A DNA stretch of 53,467 nt from Actinomycetota bacterium (GTDB lineage: Bacteria > Actinomycetota > UBA4738 > HRBIN12): the NCBI GenBank assembly GCA_038211015.1, contig JBBQVZ010000003.1, positions 1-53,467 on the forward strand, in the 5' to 3' direction. A program made the translations under genes and the position numbers. Below are positions 14,011-29,010 of this stretch, in pieces; within the stretch, counting starts at the first letter, position 1, and every line of letters starts with the position of its first letter. The notes beneath the pieces are model-generated. The model was not told the origin of the DNA. It saw only the letters and a list, made by a program, of their open reading frames with translations, and did no database searches.

Positions 14011-15033
14011 TCACGCCGGACGGACGAGTGAGGACGTGATCTCCGCGATCGTCCTGCACCCGCAGAGCGCCATCGCGTTCTCGAGCTCGAGACGGAGGAT
14101 CCCGAGCACGTCGGTCACGCCCGCCTGGCCGTCGACCGCCAGGCCCCAGATGAGTGGGCGACCGACGAGCACCGCGTCCGCCCCCAGGGCGAGCGCCTTC
14201 ACCACGTCGGTCCCCCGTCTGATCCCGCCGTCCACCAGGACCGGAACGCGACCGCCGACGGCCTCCACCACCTCGGGAAGCACGGTCAGTCCGGCCGGCG
14301 AGCCATCCAACTGACGACCGCCGTGGTTCGAGACCACGATGCCGTCGACGCCCGCCGCGACAGCAAGCTCGGCATCCTCGGCTGTGAGGATGCCCTTCAC
14401 CAGCATCGGCAGGTCGTTCGCCCGGTCACGCACCCAGCCGAGGTCGTCCCAGGTGAGCATCGACTCAAACCGCATCTCGGACGAGGCCGCCCCGTACGTG
14501 AGCGCGAACCCGTGTCGAGAGTCACGATGACGCAAGCCGAGGTGTGGGACGTCGACGGTGAGGCAGATCGCCTCGTAGCCGGCCTCGACCACCCGGGCGA
14601 GCATGTCGCTCGTCGCTGCCCTGTCCTCGAAGAGGTACAGCTGCCACCATTTCGGGGCATCCGACGCCGCCGCCACATCCTCGAGGATGTCGAACGCCGT
14701 GGTCGAGACGACCATGATCGTCCCGGCCGCGGCGGCCGCACGCGCCGTCGCCCGCTCACCGTCCGGATGGGCCATCGACTGGTAAGCCCACGGCGCCACG
14801 AGGACCGGGAGAGACAGCGGCGTCCCGAAGATCGAAGCCGACGGATCGGGACTCCCTGAACCGCGGAGGACCCGGGGCCTGAGGCTCCATCGGTCGAACG
14901 CTCGTCGGTTCTCGGCGAGCGTCCACTCGTCGCCCGCGCCTCCCGCATAGAAGTCGTACACATCGGATGAGAGCCGCTCGCGCGCCACCGGCTCGTAGTC
15001 GTCGACCGTGACGAACCGCGGGACGTCGTCCAT
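14011..15033 (-). CDS. FMN-dependent alpha-hydroxy acid oxidase/dehydrogenase
   Basis: SNHGGRQLD signature; DGGIRRGTDVVKALALGA. Confidence 0.93.
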   Translation of the reverse strand: MDDVPRFVTVDDYEPVARERLSSDVYDFYAGGAGDEWTLAENRRAFDRWSLRPRVLRGSGSPDPSASIFGTPLSLPVLVAPWAYQSMAHPDGERATARAAAAAGTIMVVSTTAFDILEDVAAASDAPKWWQLYLFEDRAATSDMLARVVEAGYEAICLTVDVPHLGLRHRDSRHGFALTYGAASSEMRFESMLTWDDLGWVRDRANDLPMLVKGILTAEDAELAVAAGVDGIVVSNHGGRQLDGSPAGLTVLPEVVEAVGGRVPVLVDGGIRRGTDVVKALALGADAVLVGRPLIWGLAVDGQAGVTDVLGILRLELENAMALCGCRTIAEITSSLVRPA

Positions 15034-15059: not shown

Positions 15060-15863
15060 TCAGCCCCGGGCGGCGAAGCGCCCAGCACCCATGTCGCGGG
15101 AGAGTCCCCGCCCGGCCTCGCGCACCGCCGCGACCAGGGCGGGCGCCGGCCCATCCGGCAGGAGCCGCTCCACCGGTCCCACGACGGAGATGGCTCCGGC
15201 GGGATCGCCGCGATGATCGAACACCGGCGACGCGATCTCGGCCTCACCCACGACCGCCTCCTGATCCTCCACGGCGACGCCGAGCGTCGAGATCTCCTCG
15301 AGCGCGGCTCGCAGGAGCGACGGCTCGGTCATCGTGCGGCCCGTGAGCGGGGAGAGGTCGGCGGCGAGGAGCGCGGTCCGACGAGCGGGCGGCACGAACG
15401 CGGCGAACGCCTTCCCCAAGGCGCACGCGTGCCACGGGATCGACGCGCCCACCTCCAGGATCTGAACGGAGTTGTCCGGGCGGAAGACGTGATGGACGAT
15501 CAGCACCGTCTCCCCGTTCATCACGCCGACACGGACGGCCTCGCCGACGCGCGTCGCGAGCGAGCCCGCCCACATCAGTGAACGAGCGCGAAGCTCGTGG
15601 TTGTCCAGGAACGAGTTCCCCAGCTGCAGCATGGCGGCACCCAGCCGGTACTTCCCGCTGTTGGGGTCCTGCTCGACGAGCTCCTGCTGCTCGAGCGTGC
15701 GGAGCAAGCCGTGGACCGTGGCCTTCGCGATCTTCAACTGGTCCGAGATCTCCGTCACGCCGAGGCGCGGCGAGCTGCCCAGCACCCGCAAGATGCGCGC
15801 GGCTCGATCGACGGACTGGATCGTGCCGTGGCGATCCCCGGCGGCGGATACCCTCGTTGCCAT
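15060..15863 (-). CDS. gylR: IclR family regulator, GylR-like glycerol operon regulator
   Basis: IQSVDRAARIL HTH; LGNSFLDNHELRARS and HHVFRPDNSVQILEVG segments typical of GylR; adjacent to glpF/glpK. Confidence 0.85.
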   Translation of the reverse strand: MATRVSAAGDRHGTIQSVDRAARILRVLGSSPRLGVTEISDQLKIAKATVHGLLRTLEQQELVEQDPNSGKYRLGAAMLQLGNSFLDNHELRARSLMWAGSLATRVGEAVRVGVMNGETVLIVHHVFRPDNSVQILEVGASIPWHACALGKAFAAFVPPARRTALLAADLSPLTGRTMTEPSLLRAALEEISTLGVAVEDQEAVVGEAEIASPVFDHRGDPAGAISVVGPVERLLPDGPAPALVAAVREAGRGLSRDMGAGRFAARG

Positions 15864-15865
15864 GG

Positions 15866-16549
15866 TCAACGGACGGCTCTCTCGAGCGCTCCGAAGATGA
15901 GCGCGGTCGAGGTTGCCCCCGGATCCTGATGCCCGATGCTCCGTGACCCCAGGTAGGACGCTCGACCCTTCCTCGCTTGCATCGGCAGCGTCGCTTCGAC
16001 CCCGGCGTTCGCCGCATCCGCGGCACTGCGCGCACCTTCGACCACGCTGCCCCCGGCTCGCAAGGTTCGCTCGAACGCCGAAACCGCCGGCTCCCACGCG
16101 TCGACCATCGTCTTGTCGCCCGGTGCCGCCGCGCCCAGAGCTTGTATCCCCGCGAGACCCGCCCGGAGCGCCGAAAGGAGCGCTTCGCCGTCCGGCGGAT
16201 CGGCCTCGGAGAGCGTCGCGCCGATCTGACGGAATCCGGTTCCGAAGAGCGGACCCGCGGCACCACCGACCCGGTAGACGAGCGTCGTTCCCACCTCCTG
16301 AAGGAGCGAGCCCGGCGATCCATCCGGAGACGACTGGAGGGTGGCGACGGCGGCGGTGAACCCACGGTGCATGTTCACCCCGTGATCGGCATCGCCGATG
16401 GCCGCGTCCAACTGGGTGAGGAAGTCACGCTCCTCCTCGATCCGCGAGGCGGCATCGACGATCCATCGACGCACGAATTCGGCATCGACGAGGAACGCTC
16501 CCAGCGCTGGGGAGCCGACACCGCCCCGGCGAGTCGTCGGCCTGCTCAC
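15866..16549 (-). CDS. dhaL: Dihydroxyacetone kinase ADP-binding subunit L (paralog in the regulator operon)
   Basis: LTQLDAAIGDADHG, GGAAGPLFG, GDKTMVD and ARKGRASYLG...GHQDPGA; GTG start inferred from the upstream promoter. Confidence 0.88.
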   Translation of the reverse strand: MSRPTTRRGGVGSPALGAFLVDAEFVRRWIVDAASRIEEERDFLTQLDAAIGDADHGVNMHRGFTAAVATLQSSPDGSPGSLLQEVGTTLVYRVGGAAGPLFGTGFRQIGATLSEADPPDGEALLSALRAGLAGIQALGAAAPGDKTMVDAWEPAVSAFERTLRAGGSVVEGARSAADAANAGVEATLPMQARKGRASYLGSRSIGHQDPGATSTALIFGALERAVR

Positions 16550-16557
16550 TCGGTGGC

Positions 16558-16587
16558 ACCATCCGTCCACCCGACGGCACCTGTCAA
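16558..16587 (-). promoter_or_regulatory. Putative housekeeping promoter for dhaL-gylR (leaderless)
   Basis: Minus strand TTGACA-N18-GATGGT, 8 nt before GTG at 16549. Confidence 0.45.
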
Positions 16588-16616
16588 ACCCGCCTCCTGC
16601 TCGACCGAACGCGATC

Positions 16617-16654
16617 TGTTCGACGATGCCGAACATAACACGACGATGTCGGTC
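16617..16654. promoter_or_regulatory. Tandem GylR-type operator inverted repeats
   Basis: GTTCGAC-gat-GCCGAAC (16618-16634) matches the mycobacterial GylR consensus GKTCGRC-N3-GYCGAMC as I recall it; a degenerate copy ACACGAC-gat-GTCGGTC starts 20 bp later. Confidence 0.7.
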
Positions 16655-16763
16655 CAATCACGGTCAGATCGCCCTTTGACTTTCGGATGCGATGAGCCTT
16701 GTCTATGGGTCACGGAGCGTCCACATCCGGGGCGCCGCGATGCATGGGGAGGTGGTCGCTCAG

Positions 16764-17492
16764 ATGTTCCTCGGAGAGGTGGTCGGCACGTGTGTGCTGA
16801 TCCTGCTTGGCGACGGAGTCGTCGCCGGGGTCCTGCTCAACAAGTCCAAGGCTCAGAACTCAGGATGGATCGTCATCACGTTCGCGTGGGCGATGGGCGT
16901 CCTGTTCGGTGTTCTTTCGAGCCTTGCGGTCTCGGGCGGCCTTGCTCATCTGAACCCGGCAGTCACCCTCGGACTGGCTGCGATCGGACCGGAGAAGTTC
17001 GGATTCACGTGGGGAGACGTGCCTCAGATAATCGCGGGCGAGTTCATCGGGGCGATGCTCGGAGCCCTGTTGGTGTACCTAAGCTACCTCCCGCACTGGG
17101 GCGAGACCGATGACGCAGGCCTGAAGCTCGCTGTGTATTCCACGGGGCCAGCGATCCGTAACACCACCGCGAACCTCATCACCGAGATTATCGGTACGGC
17201 GATGCTGGTGTTCGGCGTGGTCGCGATCGGCGGCTTCGGCGCGGGCGTCACCGATTTCGGATACTTCTTCGTTGCTCTCTTGGTGCTGGGCATCGGGCTA
17301 TCGCTCGGCGGTCCGACGGGGTACGCCATCAACCCTGCACGAGACCTCGGCCCACGGATCATGCACTTCATCCTTCCGATCGCGGGTAAGGGCGATTCCG
17401 ACTGGGGCTACTCGTGGATCCCCGTGGTCGGCCCCGTCATCGGAGGGGTGGCCGGCGCGTTCATCGCCAAGGCAGTGATGAAGGGCTTTTAG
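16764..17492 (+). CDS. glpF: Glycerol uptake facilitator (aquaglyceroporin)
   Basis: HLNPAVT and YAINPARDLGPR (NPARD is glyceroporin-type); GGGAGG RBS before ATG 16764, alternative start 16740. Confidence 0.93.
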   Translation: MFLGEVVGTCVLILLGDGVVAGVLLNKSKAQNSGWIVITFAWAMGVLFGVLSSLAVSGGLAHLNPAVTLGLAAIGPEKFGFTWGDVPQIIAGEFIGAMLGALLVYLSYLPHWGETDDAGLKLAVYSTGPAIRNTTANLITEIIGTAMLVFGVVAIGGFGAGVTDFGYFFVALLVLGIGLSLGGPTGYAINPARDLGPRIMHFILPIAGKGDSDWGYSWIPVVGPVIGGVAGAFIAKAVMKGF

Positions 17493-17519: not shown

Positions 17520-18521
17520 ATGAAGAAGCTCATCAACGACCCCGCGAACGTCGTTCGCGAAGCGCTGGAAGGCATGGAAGCGGCCCACTCGGACCTGATC
17601 AAGGTGACGTACGACCCGTACACGATCGTGCGGAAGGATGCGCCCGTTCAGGGCAAGGTGGCGCTCGTCTCGGGTGGCGGCTCAGGGCACGAGCCCATGC
17701 ACGGCGGGTTCGTCGGCATGGGCATGCTCGATGCCGCGTGCCCCGGCGAGGTATTCACCTCACCGACTCCGGACCAGATGGAGGCCGCGACGAAGGCCGT
17801 CGACGGCGGCGCCGGTGTCATCCACATCGTCAAGAACTACACCGGCGACGTGATGAACTTCGAGATGGCCGCCGAGCTCTGCCGCTCGGAGGGCACCGAG
17901 GTGGAGTCCGTGCTGGTGGACGACGACGTCGCCGTCCAGGACAGCCTCTACACGGCAGGCCGACGCGGCGTGGGTGCCACCGTTCTTCTGGAGAAGATCG
18001 CCGGCGCGGCGGCGGAGGAGAAGCGGCCCCTCAAGGAGGTCGCGGACATCTGCCGTGAGGTGAACGCGAACGCCCGCACCATGGGCATGGCGCTCACCTC
18101 ATGCACGGTGCCGGCTGCCGGGAAGCCGACGTTCGAGCTCGGTGAGGACGAGTTCGAGATCGGGATCGGCATCCACGGCGAGCCCGGACGCGAGCGGATG
18201 AAGCTGAAGACCGCCCACGACATCGTCGAGATGATGGCGGTCGCGGTGGTCGAGGATCTTCCGTTCTCATCCGGCGACAACGTGCTGGCGTTCGTGAACG
18301 GCATGGGCGGCACGCCGCTGATCGAGCTCTACCTCGTCTTCAACGAGCTCAACAAGTTCCTGAAGGGGAAGGGAGTCACGATCTCGCGCAACCTGATCGG
18401 GTCCTACATCACCTCGCTCGAGATGGCGGGCTGTTCGATCACGCTGCTGAAGCTGAACGACGAGTTGACCAAGCTGTGGGATGCGCCCGTCAAGACGCCT
18501 GGGTTGCGTTGGGGGGCCTGA
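17520..18521 (+). CDS. dhaK: Dihydroxyacetone kinase subunit K
   Basis: [27 protein letters not shown] and GIHGEPG motifs. Confidence 0.96.
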
Positions 18522-18559
18522 CCCCTACCGTGTCCCAGACGACGAGAGGGGTGGCACGA

Positions 18560-19195
18560 TTGAGCGTCCCGTACGACGATGTGGTCCGGATGGTCCGGGT
18601 GTTCGCGGCGACGATCGCGGAGAACAAGGCGTATCTGACGGAGCTCGACTCCGCGATCGGCGACGCGGACCACGGCATCAACATGGACCGCGGATTCCAG
18701 GCCGTGCTCGCCAAGCTCGACGCTCTCCCCCCAGGTGACGTCGGCTCGTTCTTCAAGGCCATCGGGATGACGTTGGTCTCGACGGTCGGCGGCGCGGGCG
18801 GTCCGTTGTACGGGACGCTCTTCCTCCAACTCGGCACCGCCACGGCAGGCAAGACCGAGATCACGGCGGAAGACTGGTCGGCGGCACTCGCGGCCGCCGT
18901 CCAGGGCGTGCAGGCTCGAGGCAAGGCCGAGCTCCAGGACAAGACGATGGTCGACGCACTCGCGCCCGCCCGCGACGCGTTCGCCGAGGCCGTCGCGGAG
19001 GGAGCGTCGTTCGGGGATGCGCTCGGACGTTCGGCCGCGGCGGGCGAGGAAGGCATGAAGGGCACGATCCCGCTCGTGGCTCGGAAGGGCAGGGCGAGCT
19101 ACTTGGGTGAGCGGAGCGCCGGACATCAGGACCCCGGTGCCACGTCGTCGTTCCTGCTGTTGAAGGCCATCGCCGAGACGTGGAGCGAGGGATAG
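18560..19195 (+). CDS. dhaL: Dihydroxyacetone kinase subunit L
   Basis: LTELDSAIGDADHG, DKTMVD, ARKGRASYLGERSAGHQDPGA; TTG start (alternative GTG 18551). Confidence 0.93.
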   Translation: MSVPYDDVVRMVRVFAATIAENKAYLTELDSAIGDADHGINMDRGFQAVLAKLDALPPGDVGSFFKAIGMTLVSTVGGAGGPLYGTLFLQLGTATAGKTEITAEDWSAALAAAVQGVQARGKAELQDKTMVDALAPARDAFAEAVAEGASFGDALGRSAAAGEEGMKGTIPLVARKGRASYLGERSAGHQDPGATSSFLLLKAIAETWSEG

Positions 19196-19215: not shown

Positions 19216-19258
19216 AGACGGTGAAGCAAGACGGTGAAGCCTGGATGGACCGTGAACC
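19216..19258. repeat. Short direct repeats upstream of glpK
   Basis: AGACGGTGAAGC at 19216-19227 and 19229-19240; degenerate GGACCGTGAACC at 19247-19258. Confidence 0.7.
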
Positions 19259-19278
19259 ATGGACAGAAGGAGGTCCGC

Positions 19279-20775
19279 ATGGCGGACTACGTAGGTGCTC
19301 TGGACCAGGGCACCACCAGCACGCGGTTCATGATCTTCGATCACAGCGGCGGCGTGGTCGGGGTGGACCAGAAGGAGCACGAGCAGATCTTTCCGAAGCC
19401 GGGATGGGTCGAGCATGACCCGAAGGAGATCTGGGAGCGATCAGGTGAGGTGACCGCCGGCGCCCTCAAGAAGGCGGGCATCGCGGCGAGTGACCTCGCC
19501 GCGGTAGGCATCACCAACCAGCGCGAGACCACGGTCGTGTGGGACCGCAACACGGGCGAGCCCGTCTACAACGCGCTCGTGTGGCAGGACACGCGCCAGC
19601 AAGACATCGTGGACTCCTTGTCGGCAGACGGCGGGCAGGACCGGTTCCGGGGCAAGACGGGTCTGCCGCTCGCCACGTACTTCTCCGGGACGAAGGTCCG
19701 GTGGATATTGGACAACGTCGATGGAGCGCGCGCCCGGGCAGAGGCCGGAGACCTGGCGTTCGGCAACATCGACGCCTGGTGCATCTGGAACCTCACGGGC
19801 GGGACCAGCGGCGGGGTGCATGTCACCGACGTGTCGAACGCCAGCCGAACCATGCTCATGAACCTGGAGACGCTCGACTGGGACGACGAGCTGTGTGCGG
19901 CGATCGGGGTTCCCCGGTCCATGCTGCCCGAGATCCGGTCGTCTTCGGAGGTCTACGGCGAGGCGAAGGGCGTGCTGGCCGGCATCCCGGTGGCGGGTGA
20001 CCTCGGCGACCAACAGGCGGCCACGTTCGGCCAGGCCGCCTACGACGTCGGGGATGCCAAGAACACGTACGGCACCGGCTGCTTCATGATCCTGAACACC
20101 GGCACCGACCTGGTGCCGTCGAAGAGCGGCCTGCTGACGACCGTCGGTTGGAAGCTCGGCGACGCACCGGCCATCTACGCCCTCGAGGGCTCGATCGCCA
20201 TCACGGGCGCGTTGGTGCAGTGGTTGCGGGACAACCTCGGCCTGATCGAGAAGTCCGAGGACGTCGAGGCGCTCGCCGCGACGGTCGAGGACAACGGCGG
20301 GACCTACTTCGTCCCGGCGTTCTCGGGACTGTTCGCGCCGTACTGGCGAGGTGACGCCCGTGGCGCGATCGTGGGCATGACCCGCTACGTCAACAAGGGT
20401 CACATCGCACGGGCAGCGCTCGAGGCGACCGCGTGGCAGACCCGTGAGGTCCTGGACGCCATGGAGGCGGACTCGGGCGTGAAGCTCAAGGAGCTGAAGG
20501 TCGATGGCGGCATGGTCTACAACGACCTGCTGATGCAGTTCCAGGCCGACTGCCTCCAGGTCCCGGTGATCCGGCCGAAGGTGGCGGAGACGACCGCGCT
20601 CGGCGCCGCGTACGCGGCGGGGCTCGCGGTCGGCTTCTGGAAGAACGTCGACGACCTGCGGTCCAATTGGGGCAAGGACGCCGAGTGGAAGCCGAAGATG
20701 GACAACGCCACGGTGACGAAGGAATACGCGCAGTGGAAGAAAGCCGTCACCAAGACGTTCGACTGGGTGGACTGA
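19279..20775 (+). CDS. glpK: Glycerol kinase
   Basis: [27 protein letters not shown] and [14 protein letters not shown]; AAGGAGG RBS. Confidence 0.97.
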
Positions 20776-20778
20776 CGA

Positions 20779-20826
20779 GACGGGTGACCGACGGACCGAC
20801 GCACACACGGTCCGTCGGTCCCCGTC
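20779..20826 (+). terminator. Long stem-loop right after glpK (terminator or mRNA stabiliser)
   Basis: GACCGACGGACCG-9 nt loop-CGGTCCGTCGGTC, extended by GACGGG/CCCGTC with a one-base bulge. Confidence 0.7.
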
Positions 20827-20845
20827 CATCGAGACGGGAGCGGGA

Positions 20846-21076
20846 ATGGAGGACGAGCGGCACGGCGACTTCGGCGAGGGACAGGAGAAGGACCCGGAGC
20901 ACGACGAGACCCACGAAGGGACGTTCGCCGAAGGGCAGCAGTCGGACGAGCACACCCACCCCGATGAGGGCAAACACGGCGACTTCGCCGAAGGTGAGGA
21001 GGAGCACCCCGACGCGCCGCACCACGAGGGGTCATTCGACGAGGGTCAGGGCAAGGGACACGACCACGACGGGTAG
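20846..21076 (+). CDS. Small His/Asp/Glu-rich protein with four H(E)G[DTS]F[GAD]EG[QE] repeats
   Basis: GGGAG RBS; GC3-rich codons; repeats conserved at protein level with synonymous DNA differences. Confidence 0.75.
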   Translation: MEDERHGDFGEGQEKDPEHDETHEGTFAEGQQSDEHTHPDEGKHGDFAEGEEEHPDAPHHEGSFDEGQGKGHDHDG

Positions 21077-21112
21077 CGACTCTTTGCCGACCTCGGTGCG
21101 ATACTCGCCGAC

Positions 21113-22306
21113 ATGACGCAGTCCGCACCGCGGACCCCACACGACGCGCACGTCCTGATCGTCGGCGGCGGTGGCACCGGAGGGGCGTTGGCGCACGACC
21201 TCGCCCTTCGCGGGCTGCGAGTCACGCTGGTCGACCGCGGAGAGTTCACGTCGGGGACGACCGGACGTCACCACGGTCTGCTCCACAGCGGCGCGCGCTA
21301 CGCCGTGAACGATCACGAGTCCGCGGTGGAGTGCATCGAAGAGAACCGCCTCCTTCGCACGATCGCGCCCGGCTCGTTCGAGGAGAACGACGGATTGTTC
21401 GTGGCGATCAGCGACGAAGACATGGCATACCTGCCGGGCTTCCTCGAAGGGTGCGCCGCGTCGGGCATCCCGGCGGAGCAGCTGACGCCCGAACGGGCAC
21501 TGCGCATGGAGCCACTGCTGAACCCGCAGCTGAAGGCCGCCGTGCGCGTGCCCGACGCCACGATGGACGCCATGCGGATGCCGATGCGCTTCTTCGCGAC
21601 GGCGAAGCGGAACGGCGCGCTGCTGTTGAACCACGTGGAGGTGACGGGACTCCTGATCCACGACGGCGTGGTGAGCGGCGCCGCGGTGCACGACCACGTC
21701 ACCGGTCGCGACGCCGAGATCCATGCGGACATCACCGTGAACGCGACGGGGCCATGGTCGGAGAAGGTGGCGACCATGGCCGGGGCCGACGTTCCGATCC
21801 GCCCCTCCCCCGGCGTGATGCTCGCCCTGCGAGGGCGACTGTGCAACATGGTGATCAACCGCCTCCATGCATCGGGCGACGGGGACATCGTCGTGCCGCA
21901 GCGCGCGCTCTCGATCGTGGGCACCAGCTCGTGGGTCGTGGACGATCCCGATCACCTGGGAGTACCCGCGGACCACGTCGCTCGGATGGTCACCGAGGGA
22001 TCGAAGCTGATCCCAGCCGTCGCCTCGGCAGTGCATCGCGCAGCATGGTCGGCCGCCCGGCCGCTGATCGGTTCGAGGGGAGATGCCGACTCCGGTCGCG
22101 AACTCTCCCGGACGTTCAAGACGATCGATCACGCGGTGGAAGACGGACCGGAGGGCTTCGTCACCATCACAGGCGGGAAAGGCACGACGCTCCGAGGGAT
22201 GGCCGAGGTCTGCGCCGACGTGGTCTGCCGCAAACTCGGTGTCGACGAGCCCTGCCGCACACGCGAGACCGTGCTTCTTCCGCCCAGCGCCTACTTCGCC
22301 GCGTGA
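21113..22306 (+). CDS. glpA: FAD-dependent glycerol-3-phosphate dehydrogenase, GlpA-type, lacking the C-terminal [2Fe-2S] domain
   Basis: GGGGTG, GTTGRHHGLLHSGARYAV, NATGPW, ITGGKGTTLRGMAE and CRT motifs; ends at 397 aa. Confidence 0.9.
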   Translation: MTQSAPRTPHDAHVLIVGGGGTGGALAHDLALRGLRVTLVDRGEFTSGTTGRHHGLLHSGARYAVNDHESAVECIEENRLLRTIAPGSFEENDGLFVAISDEDMAYLPGFLEGCAASGIPAEQLTPERALRMEPLLNPQLKAAVRVPDATMDAMRMPMRFFATAKRNGALLLNHVEVTGLLIHDGVVSGAAVHDHVTGRDAEIHADITVNATGPWSEKVATMAGADVPIRPSPGVMLALRGRLCNMVINRLHASGDGDIVVPQRALSIVGTSSWVVDDPDHLGVPADHVARMVTEGSKLIPAVASAVHRAAWSAARPLIGSRGDADSGRELSRTFKTIDHAVEDGPEGFVTITGGKGTTLRGMAEVCADVVCRKLGVDEPCRTRETVLLPPSAYFAA

Positions 22307-23052
22307 TGGCCACGCACACCCCCGGCACCGCGAGCGAGGCGAACGTTGCCTCCGTCGAGATGCGCCCCTTCCGCGTCTTCCGGTTCGCTCGCGAGAACGG
22401 CCCCTCGCGGTTCGACACGTTCGATGCTGAGGTCCGCTCCGAGAGCACCGTCCTCGACGCCTTGCGATGGATCAAGATCCACCGTGACACATCGCTCACG
22501 ATCCGGCACTCGTGCTTCCATGCCTCATGCGGGACCTGCGGGGTCCGGGTGAACGGTCGGGAGGCGCTCGCGTGCGTGACGAGCCTCGCGGACCTGGACC
22601 CCGGCCCGGTGACCGTGGAGCCCATGGCGAACTTCCCCGTGATCGCCGACCTGGTCGTCGACATGACCTCGTTCGTCGAGCGGTTCCCTTCGCCGCACCC
22701 CGCCACCAGATCGAGCGAGTCGCCATCGAAAGCGGCCCCTCCGTCGGGGATCGACGAGTTCGGTCGGTTCGAGGACTGCATCGAGTGTGGCCTGTGCCTG
22801 TCCGCGTGCCCGGTCGCGGCCACCGACGACTCGTACGTCGGACCCGCCGCCCTCGCCTACGCCCAGCGCATGCTCGAGGAGCCGCGAGGCGCGAACGTTG
22901 CCCCCATCCTCGAGTGGGCCGACGGGGACAACGCCGCGTGGCGATGCCACGCGGCGTTCGAGTGCACCGAGGCCTGTCCCTCCAACGTGCGTCCGGCGCA
23001 ACGCATCATGCAGCTGCGTCGCGCCCTGAACAGCGGGGGAACCGGCTCGTGA
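22306..23052 (+). CDS. SdhB/FrdB-like iron-sulfur subunit
   Basis: CFHASCGTC-x11-C ([2Fe-2S]), CIECGLCLSACP ([4Fe-4S]), CHAAFECTEACP ([3Fe-4S]); TGATG coupling to glpA. Confidence 0.92.
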   Translation: MATHTPGTASEANVASVEMRPFRVFRFARENGPSRFDTFDAEVRSESTVLDALRWIKIHRDTSLTIRHSCFHASCGTCGVRVNGREALACVTSLADLDPGPVTVEPMANFPVIADLVVDMTSFVERFPSPHPATRSSESPSKAAPPSGIDEFGRFEDCIECGLCLSACPVAATDDSYVGPAALAYAQRMLEEPRGANVAPILEWADGDNAAWRCHAAFECTEACPSNVRPAQRIMQLRRALNSGGTGS

Positions 23053-23489
23053 CGCAGCCCGGAGACGACCTCGAGGACATCCGGGCCGCGCGCGAAGCGC
23101 GCGGCCCGGTCCTTCGGAAGTCGCCCGGACCCACCGCCTGGTTCGACATCCGAAGGACCCGGACCGGGCACTGGGCGTTCTCGCTGAACCGACTTTCGAG
23201 CCTCGGGCTCGTGGCGTACCTGTATCTGCACCTCGCGGTGCTCTCGCTGCTCCTCGGCGGAGAGAACTCGTGGCACAGCTTCCTGAAGCTCGCGACGACC
23301 CCGCTGTTCCTGGGATTCGACGTACTCCTGATCTTCGGGTTGCTGTTCCATGGGCTGAACGGTCTCCGTGTCGCGCTCGTGGGTTCCGGGGTCGCGGCCG
23401 ACCGCCAGAAGGCGCTCTTCTGGTCGCTCATGATCTTCGGGGCGATCCTGTTGTTGGGGGCGACCTTGCACATAGCGGGGAGCGGTTGA
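23049..23489 (+). CDS. SdhC-like cytochrome b membrane anchor
   Basis: Three TM helices; WAFSLNRLSS, YLYLH and FHGLNGLR; GTGA overlap. Confidence 0.85.
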   Translation: MTQPGDDLEDIRAAREARGPVLRKSPGPTAWFDIRRTRTGHWAFSLNRLSSLGLVAYLYLHLAVLSLLLGGENSWHSFLKLATTPLFLGFDVLLIFGLLFHGLNGLRVALVGSGVAADRQKALFWSLMIFGAILLLGATLHIAGSG

Positions 23490-23869
23490 TGACGGACACG
23501 AGAGAGATGGCGGAGACGGGCCTTCGTCGCTCGCGCACCTGGAAGGCCACGGCGAGCTCGGGCGCTGCTTTGCTGGTGCTCGTGACGGTCCACATGATCG
23601 CGCATCACTTCGTCGTCGAGGAGGTGGGCGGGCTCCGCACGTACGCGCAGGTCCTCGACTACATCTCGAACCCGATCATGTTCGCGATCGAGATCCTGTT
23701 CCTCGTGGTGGTCACGACCCACGCCATGCTCGGCCTCCGCTCGGTGCTGTTCGACTTCGGGCTCTCGACCCGCGCCAAACGCCTCGTGGCGCGCGGCTTG
23801 CTCGCGCTGGGGATCGTGACGGTCGCGTACGGGGTGACGCTCATCGGCGTGCTGGCCGCCAAAGCCTGA
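23489..23869 (+). CDS. SdhD-like membrane anchor
   Basis: Three TM helices; VTVHMIAHH and THAMLGLRSVLFDFG; TGATG coupling. Confidence 0.85.
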   Translation: MTDTREMAETGLRRSRTWKATASSGAALLVLVTVHMIAHHFVVEEVGGLRTYAQVLDYISNPIMFAIEILFLVVVTTHAMLGLRSVLFDFGLSTRAKRLVARGLLALGIVTVAYGVTLIGVLAAKA

Positions 23870-23883
23870 GGCGGAACACGACC

Positions 23884-26358
23884 ATGGTGGGGATCGTGAT
23901 CGTGTCGCACAGCCACCTCATCGCCGAGGGCGTGGCCGAGCTCGCCCGCGAGATGGGAGGCCCGGACGTGCGACTCGAGACCGCCGGGGGCCTGGACATG
24001 CCGGACCATCCCATCGGAACCGACGCCGTACTGGTGATGGAGGCCATCGACCGAGCGTGGTCCGAGGACGGCGTGCTCGTCCTGATGGATCTGGGCAGCG
24101 CGGTGCTCTCCGCCGAGATGGCCCTCGACCTGATACCGGAGGAGCGGGGGTCCAAGGTGCTGCTCTGCGAGGCGCCGATCGTGGAGGGCGCGGTGGCCGC
24201 CGCCGTCACGGCCAAGCTGGGCGCCCCACTCGACCACGTCGCCCGGGAGGCGCGCGGCGGACTGGCCGGCAAGATCGCGCACCTCGGCGATGCCGGAGAC
24301 GAAGAGCCGCCGGTCCCATCGGCGGCGCCGGCCGGTGATGGGGCGTCGATCAGGGTGACGGTGACCGCGGGACACGGGTTGCACGCGCGGCCCGCCGCCC
24401 GCCTCGTGCAGACGGCGTCGTCTTTCGACGCCCGGGTGACGATCCGCGACCTGACGAACGGCCGGGGCCCGGCGGATGCGGCCAGCTTGAACGCCGTCGC
24501 GATGCTCGGCACGACCCAGGGACACGAGATCGAGATCGCCGCGGTGGGGCCGGGGGCGCCCGCGGCACTGGCGGCGATCCGCGCGCTCGCCGAACGCAAC
24601 TTCGACGACCGTCCGGAACCGGAACCGCCGGAGGCGCAGCGTGCGGCTCCGGCGATCCCGTCCCCGGACGGTCCCGGGATCGTGCGGGGTCGCCCCGCCT
24701 CCCCGGGGATCGCGATCGGGCCGGCGAGGCGGTTCCGGACGCCCGACCTGCCGATCCCTGAGGGATCCGGTCCGATGGACGTCGAGATCGCCTCGTTCGA
24801 GGCGGCGCTCGACCACGTCCGCGACGAGATCGCGCGCCAGCGCGCGCTCGTCGCAGGACGGGCGGGCGCGGATGAGGCGGAGATCTTCGACGCCCACCTG
24901 CTCATGCTGAGGGACGACGCGCTGCTTGCCCCGACGAAGCGCGCGATCGCCGACGACGACATCTCGGCCGCGGCGGCCTGGCACGAAGTGATCGAACGGG
25001 CGGCGCAAGCCTGGGATGGCCTCGACGACGAGTACCTTCGGGCGCGGGCCGCCGACCTGCGGAGCGTGGGGCGCCAGGTGCTCGCGCATCTGCTGGACGT
25101 CCCGGTCCCCCGCCCTTCGCTCGAGGCGCCCGGCGTGGTGATCGCGAGCGATCTCTCGCCCGCCGACACCGTGGGACTCGATCCCACCATCGCGCTGGGC
25201 ATCGCGACGGCAGCCGGCGGGCCCACGTCGCACGCAGCGGTGCTCGCGCGTTCGTCCGGGATCCCCGCGGTCGTCGGCGCCGGGGACGCGCTGCTCGCCA
25301 TCGCCGAGGGGACCACCGTCGTGGTGGATGGGACCGCAGGCGTGATCCACGTCGATCCGGACGAGTCGCTCCTTGCCGAACTCACGGCCGTGCGCGACGA
25401 ACGCGCGGTGGCGCTCCGAGATGCGCAGGCCTCCGCGCTCGAACCGGCGATCACGATCGACGGGACGACGATCGAGGTCGCCGCGAACATCGGGTCGCCG
25501 GCGGACGCGGTCCGGTCCGTCGCCGCGGGCGCCGACGGGGTCGGCCTCTTCCGGACCGAGTTCCTGTTCATGGGGAGGTCGGCGATGCCGGATGCGCGCG
25601 AGCAAGAGGCGGCGTACCGCGAGACGGCGGAGGCGCTCGGCGGACGTCCGTTGCTGATCCGGACGCTCGACGCCGGAGCCGACAAGCCGCTCCCCTACCT
25701 CGACCAGCCTCCCGAGCCCAACCCGTTCTTGGGGGTGCGGGGGATCCGGCTCGGGCTGGAACGACCGGAGCTCCTCCTGACGCAGCTCCGAGCGATCCTC
25801 CGCGTGGCGGCCGACCACCCGCTCCGGGTGATGTTCCCGATGGTCGCGACGGTCGACGAACTGCTCGCGGCGAACGAACTCCTCGAAGGCGCCGGCGAAC
25901 GGCCGCCGACGCTCGAGGTGGGCGTCATGATCGAGGTGCCGTCGGCCGCCGTGTTGGCGGACCGTCTGGCGGAGCACGCCGACTTCTTCTCGATCGGCAC
26001 GAACGACCTCACGCAGTACACGATGGCCGCGGATCGCGGGAACGTCCGTGTGAGTGGCCTCGCCGACGCCGTTCACCCCGCGGTGCTCCGCTCGATCCGG
26101 ATGACCGTCGACGCCGCTAACGCACGCGGACGATGGGTCGGCGTCTGCGGCGAGCTCGCCGGCGATACCGACGCCACCGAGCTGCTGCTCGGTTTGGGCG
26201 TGAGCGAACTGTCGATGGGCGCACCGTCGATCGCGCTCGTCAAGCGCCAGGTGCGCACCGTCGATCTCGCGCACGCCCGCGCGTTGGCCGACGAAGCTCT
26301 TTCGTGCGCGACGTCGGCAGAGGTTCGCGAACTGTTGCGCAGCGCCCGAATCGGCTGA
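23884..26358 (+). CDS. dhaM: Multidomain phosphotransferase: DhaM (EIIA-Man-like)-HPr-Enzyme I fusion
   Basis: VIVSHS (EIIA His), GLHARPAA (HPr His), GGPTSHAAVLAR (EI His), GVGLFRTEF, SIGTNDLTQY and VGVCGE (PEP-binding domain). Confidence 0.92.
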   Translation: MVGIVIVSHSHLIAEGVAELAREMGGPDVRLETAGGLDMPDHPIGTDAVLVMEAIDRAWSEDGVLVLMDLGSAVLSAEMALDLIPEERGSKVLLCEAPIVEGAVAAAVTAKLGAPLDHVAREARGGLAGKIAHLGDAGDEEPPVPSAAPAGDGASIRVTVTAGHGLHARPAARLVQTASSFDARVTIRDLTNGRGPADAASLNAVAMLGTTQGHEIEIAAVGPGAPAALAAIRALAERNFDDRPEPEPPEAQRAAPAIPSPDGPGIVRGRPASPGIAIGPARRFRTPDLPIPEGSGPMDVEIASFEAALDHVRDEIARQRALVAGRAGADEAEIFDAHLLMLRDDALLAPTKRAIADDDISAAAAWHEVIERAAQAWDGLDDEYLRARAADLRSVGRQVLAHLLDVPVPRPSLEAPGVVIASDLSPADTVGLDPTIALGIATAAGGPTSHAAVLARSSGIPAVVGAGDALLAIAEGTTVVVDGTAGVIHVDPDESLLAELTAVRDERAVALRDAQASALEPAITIDGTTIEVAANIGSPADAVRSVAAGADGVGLFRTEFLFMGRSAMPDAREQEAAYRETAEALGGRPLLIRTLDAGADKPLPYLDQPPEPNPFLGVRGIRLGLERPELLLTQLRAILRVAADHPLRVMFPMVATVDELLAANELLEGAGERPPTLEVGVMIEVPSAAVLADRLAEHADFFSIGTNDLTQYTMAADRGNVRVSGLADAVHPAVLRSIRMTVDAANARGRWVGVCGELAGDTDATELLLGLGVSELSMGAPSIALVKRQVRTVDLAHARALADEALSCATSAEVRELLRSARIG

Positions 26359-28011: not shown

Positions 28012-29010
28012 GTGACGACTGAGACCGCGCGACCCGACCGCAACCTCGCCCTGGAGCTCGTCCGGGTCACCGAAGCCGCCGCGCTTGCGGCCGGAAGGTG
28101 GATCGGCCACGGCAACAAGGTCGCGGCCGATGCCGCCGCGGTCGACGCGATGCGGCTGATGATCGACACGGTGTCGATGCACGGCACCGTCGTGATCGGC
28201 GAAGGCGAGAAGGACGAAGCGCCCATGCTGTTCAACGGCGAAGAGGTCGGCGACGGCACCGGACCAGGCGTGGACGTCGCGGTCGACCCCGTCGACGGCA
28301 CCCGCCTGACGGCCCTCGGTCAACCCAACGCGCTCGCGGTGATCGCACTCGCCGAGCGAGGCTCCATGTTCTTCCCCGGCGCCGCCGTCTACATGGAGAA
28401 GGTCGCGACCGGACCCGAGGCCGCCCACGCGATCGACATCACCGCGTCGCCGGGGGAGAACGTGCGCCGGGTCGCGAAGGCCAAGGGTGTAGGGCCCGAA
28501 GAGATCACCGTGACGATCCTCGATCGTGACCGACACGCGACGATGATCACCGAGGTCCGCGAGGTCGGGGCTCGGGTCTTCCTGATCACCGACGGCGACG
28601 TCGCGGGAGCCATCGCCGCGGCGACACCACGCTCCGGTGTCGACCTGCTGCTCGGGATCGGCGGGACGCCGGAGGGCGTGATCGCGGCGGCGGCGCTCAA
28701 GTGCCTGGGGGGCGCGATCCAGGGACGGCTCTGGCCCAGGAGCGACGACGAACGGGGAACCCTGATCGATCAGGGCTTCGACCTCGACAATGTGCTCGCG
28801 ACCGACGACCTCGTCTCCGGAAGCGAGGTGTTCTTCGCAGCGACGGGCGTCACGGACGGGTCGCTGCTGCGGGGTGTGAAGTACTGGCCCGACGGCGCCA
28901 CCACGTATTCGATGGTGATGCGTTCGCAATCGGGAACCGTTCGGTACGTCGAGGCCCAACACCAGTTCGAGAAGCTCGAGCGATTCTCCGCGATCCCGTA
29001 CCGCCGCTGA
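28012..29010 (+). CDS. glpX: Class II fructose-1,6-bisphosphatase
   Basis: [34 protein letters not shown] and GIGGTPEGV. Confidence 0.96.

Follow-up and report, generated by a model that had tools for sequence, protein, structure and literature searches.

The window analyzed here is the whole stretch of 53,467 nucleotides from an Actinomycetota bacterium (contig JBBQVZ010000003.1 of assembly GCA_038211015.1). It corresponds to contig C3 of an assembly of 3.48 Mb in 248 contigs that is 96.9% complete. Within a glycerol cluster, the window carries four consecutive genes, which we name glpA', sdhB', sdhC' and sdhD'. The first encodes a short relative of GlpA, a flavoprotein of glycerol-3-phosphate (G3P) oxidation, and the others encode relatives of the iron-sulfur and membrane-anchor subunits of succinate dehydrogenase (Complex II). 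An original prediction, made from the letters of the sequence, had proposed that the short GlpA replaces SdhA as the catalytic head of a Complex II-like enzyme. The evidence behind all our conclusions is computational throughout. The four genes are the following.

21113..22306, + strand: glpA', short GlpA-like flavin adenine dinucleotide (FAD) flavoprotein, 397 amino acids (translation, profile and pairwise matches)
22306..23052, + strand: sdhB', iron-sulfur protein of the SdhB/FrdB family, 248 amino acids, all 11 cluster cysteines kept
23049..23489, + strand: sdhC', anchor with three transmembrane segments, 146 amino acids, GTG start, invariant H61 and H101
23489..23869, + strand: sdhD', anchor with three transmembrane segments, 126 amino acids, invariant H35, H40, H78 and D89

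The four genes are translationally coupled, with overlapping stop and start codons at 3/3 junctions. Read directly from the sequence, the overlaps are TGATG at 22304-22308 (glpA'/sdhB'), GTGA at 23049-23052 (sdhB'/sdhC') and TGATG at 23487-23491 (sdhC'/sdhD'), exactly as first described. All four frames are open and the stop codon of sdhD' lies at 23867-23869. The G+C content of the window is about 70%, which leads to many long spurious frames; each of the four genes is backed by a family match. An assembly chimera was ruled out since contigs of other public runs span every junction (X1, 20522-23334; X2, from a different study, 21997-23213; X3, 23262-24108; X5, 21671-22526). SdhA, GlpB and GlpC gave no match anywhere on the window's contig, as had been anticipated.

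The best NCBIfam model of GlpA' is that of GlpA itself (TIGR03377; 438.7 bits). The score falls under the cut-off of 552.8 because the match covers only positions 1-378 of the 530 of the profile, the C-terminus being missing; a second model, NF008313, was not reached either (382.7 bits; cut-off 425). GlpA' is 44% identical to residues 26-386 of the 542 residues of E. coli GlpA and ends nine residues after this match. The Pfam domain Fer2_BFD, the BFD-like [2Fe-2S] domain at the C-terminus of canonical GlpA, was detected in two positive controls, E. coli GlpA (37.0 bits) and a long GlpA from locus L071 (33.2 bits), and was not found in GlpA' (P0001), in a Thermoflexus homologue (L098) or in a distant short homologue (L167). 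The flavoprotein is therefore of the GlpA type and ends at residue 397, as the original prediction had it. Its length ranges from 386 to 413 amino acids across 57 clean related loci, which indicates that the truncation is a fixed trait. A search of solved structures for the GlpA family returned none, the nearest being chains of the GlpD and GlpO types at no more than 96 bits.

SdhB' matches the SdhB/FrdB model TIGR00384 with 179.6 bits (cut-off 88). Cysteines C75, C78, C90, C158, C161, C164, C168, C214, C220 and C224 are kept in 59/59 aligned rows and C70 in 58/59, in line with a partner carrying three clusters. The loop of the first cluster is RHSCFHASC, reading on as SCFHASCGTCG, so that the unusual CFHASC pointed out earlier is indeed present in the translation. 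H72 of this loop is invariant (59/59) and is found neither in E. coli SdhB nor in the genome's own SdhB; this histidine may be a signature of docking. As third [2Fe-2S] ligand, SdhB' has a cysteine and both of these SdhB proteins have an aspartate.

SdhC' and SdhD' match the Pfam family Sdh_cyt (PF01127) with 35.2 and 41.4 bits (cut-off 25.8) and each presents three hydrophobic segments in hydropathy analysis. The heme b ligand positions of E. coli, which we take to be SdhC H84 and SdhD H71, are matched in the alignments by H101 of SdhC' and H78 of SdhD'. H61 of SdhC' and H35 of SdhD' align with histidines of the genome's own SdhC and SdhD that E. coli lacks. All four histidines are invariant in 58/58 anchor rows, which agrees with the two candidate heme ligands assigned at the outset to each anchor. 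Such a set of four is presumably the pattern of two-heme anchors and, judging from these residues, the SdhC'D' anchor probably carries two hemes b. Residues D89-F90 of SdhD' align with D82-Y83 of E. coli SdhD, D89 being invariant (58/58); the DF noticed earlier in place of the usual DY quinone motif is thus confirmed.

Conservation and paralogy of the cluster

We scanned genomes with SdhB' as query, using one genome per species, and from 151 relatives retained 80 loci. By title, these loci belong to Actinomycetota (51), Chloroflexota (28) and Planctomycetaceae (1). A short glpA lies immediately upstream of the SdhB-like gene in 79/80 loci, the remaining one (L084) being cut there, and is followed by SdhC-like genes in 77/80 and SdhD-like genes in 75/80. 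SdhA had no match in any of the 80 genome loci or of the 80 metagenome loci presented below. The commonest gene order is glpF, dhaK, dhaL, glpK, glpA', sdhB', sdhC', sdhD', dhaM, and glpK adjoins glpA' in most related loci. For the alignments, 22 of the 80 loci were dropped for length or completeness; L049, with four internal stops in glpA', was left out of alignments A2-A4 and kept in A1. In the SdhB tree, locus L054, from the metagenome-assembled genome (MAG) titled Planctomycetaceae, falls among the SdhB' of Actinomycetota, which points to mis-binning or to recent transfer.

The frequency of the cluster was estimated in further samples. When 300 further genomes of the phylum were sampled evenly, a protein at least 47% identical to SdhB' turned up in 12, nine of which belong to the 16 sampled genomes of the window's own family; the six that were examined in context are all GlpA-linked (6/6). 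The examined matches at 47% identity or above are GlpA-linked, and matches to SdhB' (P0004) at 38-45% (G116, G248, G406 and G466) are SdhA-linked. An orphan SdhB-like gene (L130 in G426; 43% identity to P0004) has neither GlpA nor SdhA nearby and neighbors genes of the DegV, PfkB and BtpA families, and the unpublished genome G231 has a 42% match. Among 200 other Chloroflexota, five examined matches are GlpA-linked and four further matches show 52-57% identity. A second, SdhA-linked SdhB is held by each of five other carriers.

We also counted G3P dehydrogenase types across the window's family, in a set of 60 genomes. The short GlpA (at least 73% identity) was found in 28, the long GlpA in 7 and the DAO_C domain in 3, none of which has the short GlpA. 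GlpK is present in 34/60 of these genomes and in 26/28 short-GlpA carriers; in the two carriers without it, glpA' is located at the start of a contig. The 300-genome sample and the 60-genome counts both include genomes flagged unpublished, with G519 and G525 among the 28 short-GlpA carriers and G519 also among the 7 with a long GlpA. Finally, seven loci harbor a full glpA-glpB-glpC set directly beside glpA'-sdhB'C'D' (L071, L073, L074, L077, L086 and L090 in Chloroflexota, and L082, a Streptosporangiaceae MAG), and the two sets must therefore be distinct enzymes. E. coli has GlpD and GlpABC for different conditions, which by analogy suggests that these two enzymes may also serve different conditions.

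The rest of the window's genome contains a separate and complete sdhC-sdhD-sdhA-sdhB set on contig C197, which holds the sole SdhA found in the genome. There is one GlpA-like gene, the next-best match reaching 78.5 bits. In the same genome, GlpB was not found (best match 22.8 bits; cut-off 174.15), nor was the GlpD-type C-terminal domain DAO_C, and the only GlpC-like match is 23.6% identical and lies on another contig. With a single GlpA, no GlpB and no DAO_C, GlpA' is therefore the only visible FAD-type G3P dehydrogenase of this genome. MenB and MenA score above their cut-offs, which fits menaquinone as the pool quinone. A recent duplication of the local SdhB was rejected as the source of SdhB': the genome's own SdhB shares 35% identity with P0004, which clusters with GlpA-linked proteins from another phylum.

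Wider family and predicted contact of GlpA' and SdhB'

A comparison of GlpA' with 1.84 billion representatives returned many proteins of 372-434 amino acids, beside forms of 480-692. We built a FastTree phylogeny of GlpA with 109 rows, including 23 loci chosen among the 57 locus rows of A2, the window's protein and representatives from P0125-P0214 of at least 370 amino acids. On one side of a branch with a support of 98 are all 24 SdhB-linked GlpA', joined by 15 short representatives and a mis-sized row; on the other are 69 long, fused and GlpBC-linked rows, E. coli GlpA included. The latter side also holds GlpA-like fusions of 920-1000 amino acids whose first 380 residues match GlpA' (P0138, P0142, P0149, P0155, P0179, P0187, P0191, P0203 and P0209).

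Metagenome contigs were scanned with an alignment of 13 short representatives outside the known subclade, and we retained the 80 best-scoring loci, which are not a random sample. An SdhB-like gene directly follows the short glpA in 61 of the 62 loci with at least 800 bp downstream; the synteny without sdhA is thus conserved in metagenomes as in genomes. SdhC'/D' matches were detected in 25 of these 61 loci, 28 have room for anchors and no match, and 8 are cut. The anchor is consequently not obligatory for the GlpA'-SdhB' pair. Genome loci of this anchor-less kind (L092, L095 and L134) form their own subclade in the SdhB tree; the metagenome examples include L139, L140, L167 and L192. Downstream of anchor-less pairs lie unrelated genes, e.g., PanE-like, hydrolase or LemA. 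Small open reading frames after SdhB' were considered as a mini-anchor and dropped, their translations being mostly of low complexity or non-hydrophobic, and 10 larger ones downstream of such pairs gave unrelated or no Pfam families. In two loci (L156:5197-6783 and L170:1825-3156), SdhB' is fused to a C-terminal CCG cysteine-rich domain, and the short glpA that precedes these fusions is 78% identical to that of the window.

We then turned to the phylogeny of SdhB. In a tree of 76 rows (L021-L070 thinned to alternate loci and six duplicates removed), 64 GlpA-linked and two unknown-context rows are separated from 10 SdhA-linked rows by a branch of length 1.02 with a Shimodaira-Hasegawa-like approximate likelihood ratio test (SH-aLRT) value of 97. 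The 10 SdhA-linked rows come from the same genomes and are of three types. A second tree, in which 27 anchor-less cases and E. coli SdhB were added and every fourth locus of L021-L100 was kept, separates 66 GlpA-linked from 11 SdhA-linked rows (SH-aLRT 99). Both trees are quick searches, unrooted and with few outgroups; they fit, and do not prove, a single origin of the GlpA'-SdhB' partnership. The SdhB-like proteins do form their own group, split from all 11 SdhA-linked ones examined.

The contact between the two proteins was modeled from SdhB' and GlpA' with their own alignments, FAD and a [2Fe-2S] cluster being included as ligands. The model obtained an interface score (ipSAE) of 0.89 (0.87, 0.89 and 0.92 in individual runs), and the best of three controls scored 0.00. 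At least 63% of contacts recur across the runs, and the predicted local distance difference test (pLDDT) of the partner is 87 or above. In the predicted complex, the [2Fe-2S] loop of SdhB' lies against the flavin pocket of GlpA', residues 67-75 (the first cluster loop) facing residues 44-52, 87-93, 150-155, 238-246, 309-314 and the tail 390-397 of GlpA'.

The glycerol neighborhood

The four genes lie among genes of glycerol and dihydroxyacetone metabolism, of which the closest are listed here.

16692..17492, + strand: MIP-family channel, glpF-like (Pfam and NCBIfam profiles)
17520..18521, + strand: dhaK (TIGR02363, 490.8 bits)
18476..19195, + strand: dhaL (TIGR02365, 241.6 bits; profile begins at residue 38)
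19234..20775, + strand: glpK, glycerol kinase (TIGR01311, 736.7 bits; cut-off 590.35)
23884..26358, + strand: dhaM-HPr-Enzyme I fusion, 824 amino acids, beginning 14 nucleotides past the sdhD' stop

The true start of dhaL is probably later, given where its profile match begins. The 824-amino-acid fusion combines EIIA-Man (DhaM), HPr and a complete Enzyme I with its phosphoenolpyruvate-binding domain, i.e., the entire relay of phosphate from phosphoenolpyruvate to dihydroxyacetone kinase on a single chain, and it is kept in most related loci. At 15866-16657 (-) and 15060-16097 (-), a further protein with a Dak2 domain and a regulator of the IclR type are encoded in the direction leading away from the glycerol cluster, and many related loci open with the minus-strand Dak2 gene. 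Further upstream lies a dehydrogenase of the 2-hydroxyacid type dependent on flavin mononucleotide (14011-15033, -), and downstream of the cluster a GlpX-type fructose-1,6-bisphosphatase (28012-29010, +). The spacer between glpK and glpA' (20776-21112) is 337 nucleotides long, with a hairpin at about 20771-20835, and spacers of similar length are present in related Actinomycetota loci. Rfam returned only sub-threshold microRNA models over this hairpin, and promoter and terminator scans of 20600-24100 gave chance level only. A look-up of RNA data returned nothing.

A candidate G3P:menaquinone oxidoreductase

From the gene anatomy, its conservation, the paralogy with Complex II and the conserved cofactor ligands, we infer that the four genes probably encode a single membrane-bound G3P:menaquinone oxidoreductase, with the short GlpA in the place of SdhA. 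The proposal that GlpA' acts as the catalytic head finds support in the synteny, the SdhB trees, the separate sdhCDAB set and the model of the complex. Glycerol would enter through the MIP channel and GlpK would then make G3P, which GlpA' would oxidize to dihydroxyacetone phosphate at its FAD. The [2Fe-2S] domain of SdhB' would occupy the place of the BFD cluster that canonical GlpA carries itself. Electrons would pass from [2Fe-2S] to [4Fe-4S] and [3Fe-4S] within SdhB', then to heme b of the anchor and finally to menaquinone. Electron transfer from G3P to menaquinone is downhill by established redox potentials, and such an enzyme would therefore need no energy input, unlike one that transfers electrons from succinate to menaquinone.

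Several observations weigh against this interpretation. SdhC' and SdhD' stay below the cut-offs of the NCBIfam SdhC and SdhD equivalogs (39.3 of 52.3 and 29.6 of 41.8, respectively). Across the 58 anchor rows, the residue after D89 of SdhD' is F (32), L (24), M (1) or V (1) and never the Tyr of E. coli, and the Trp beside the [3Fe-4S] motif of E. coli SdhB (after CPS) is missing in SdhB'. The ipSAE mark, reached by 58/80 solved complexes and 2/110 mismatched pairs, was calibrated with neither own alignments nor added ligands, and the structure of SdhA-SdhB has been solved many times, such that the docking geometry could be partly model memory. The SdhA-linked outgroups of the trees are few (11) and represent two phyla plus E. 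coli. Moreover, the pair occurs without SdhC/D-like genes after it in 28 metagenome and 3 genome loci. It is possible, albeit unlikely in our view, that GlpA' and SdhB' constitute a redox pair which SdhC'D' merely tether, or that electrons go to an acceptor other than menaquinone. The anchor-less pairs point in this direction (28 of the 53 metagenome loci with room, plus the three genome loci), as do the two loci with a CCG domain instead of anchors and the loss of E. coli-type quinone residues. However, anchors are present in 75-77 of the 80 loci of the window's own clade and coupled by overlapping codons, the four histidines at heme-ligand positions never vary, and men genes are present.

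GlpD-type enzymes function without partners, and SdhB', SdhC' and SdhD' are true members of their families. GlpA' could accordingly be a free-standing peripheral G3P dehydrogenase, with SdhB'C'D' serving as a spare Complex II base for the SdhA of contig C197, but we find this very improbable: the adjacency holds in 79/80 and 61/62 loci with no SdhA beside any, the sole SdhA of the genome has its own B, C and D subunits, and the model places the clade-specific loop RHSCFHASC, with its invariant H72 (59/59), on GlpA'. A substrate other than G3P is a further reading, which we consider highly unlikely. GlpA' does fall below the GlpA equivalog cut-offs and the DAO family spans many specificities; yet the missing C-terminus accounts for the low scores, and the identity to E. 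coli GlpA extends over the whole catalytic part. In addition, glpK is adjacent in most loci and co-occurs in 26/28 carriers, and the genome yielded no further candidate for a G3P dehydrogenase.

Textbook respiratory G3P oxidation in bacteria relies on GlpD, GlpO or GlpABC. The candidate enzyme resembles E. coli GlpABC in its catalytic part, its expected substrate and its link to quinone, but differs by the absence of the BFD domain, GlpB and GlpC. It likely fills the same niche as GlpD, i.e., respiratory oxidation of G3P to quinone, but GlpD consists of one peripheral protein that carries a DAO_C domain. With Complex II it shares the SdhB fold with three clusters, two anchors of three transmembrane segments and the four histidines, which also occur in the SdhC and SdhD of this genome; we take type A to be defined by two anchor subunits and two hemes. 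It departs from Complex II in having no SdhA, Cys rather than Asp as third [2Fe-2S] ligand, a replaced SdhD Tyr and a separate SdhB clade.

The original prediction had allowed that the arrangement might have been noted before, and this is the case for archaea: Schmerling et al. (2025; Commun Biol 8:539, PMC11962113) drew a 'GlpA-SdhBCD (T. pendens)' from synteny for Thermofilum pendens and its relatives, under that name in the legend of their Fig. 9. The gene order is the same, and so is the function proposed, electron transfer together with anchoring in the membrane. The Thermofilum case is archaeal whereas the module described here is bacterial and common; we liken the two by gene order as described in PMC11962113. 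The same article reports a short GlpA in Sulfolobus acidocaldarius that likewise lacks the canonical C-terminus and has a non-GlpBC partner, but this partner, a CoxG-like protein, has no iron-sulfur clusters and is not an SdhB/C/D set. Its discussion states that canonical bacterial glpA consistently co-occurs with glpB and glpC, and the bacterial range found here is absent from that discussion and from the Fig. 9 legend. Our literature searches found the term 'GlpA-SdhBCD' only in PMC11962113 and its preprint, and those on a GlpA-SdhB pairing for G3P turned up no bacterial case.

More broadly, the short GlpA and SdhB' may form an old monophyletic module with swappable ends (SdhC'D', a CCG domain, or none nearby), whose four-gene form, rather than GlpD or GlpABC, would be the main respiratory G3P dehydrogenase of soil Actinomycetota and Chloroflexota. 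We regard this as a tentative reading with somewhat less than even chances. If true, it would contradict the published claim that bacterial glpA always accompanies glpBC. Annotation pipelines name the parts of this system 'succinate dehydrogenase/fumarate reductase iron-sulfur subunit', and reconstructions of soil MAGs would consequently tally an extra Complex II and overlook a G3P dehydrogenase. The module offers a clean natural test of the modularity of Complex II, with the same B/C/D wiring and a different flavoprotein head, and a structure would show how the [2Fe-2S] ferredoxin domain stands in for the BFD domain of GlpA. In the window's family, this fourth architecture is the commonest: it occurs in 28/60 genomes, the long GlpA in 7 and a domain of the GlpD type in 3. 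If the proposed enzyme is real, the B/C/D base of Complex II would be a general-purpose wire that accepts a non-homologous flavoprotein head.

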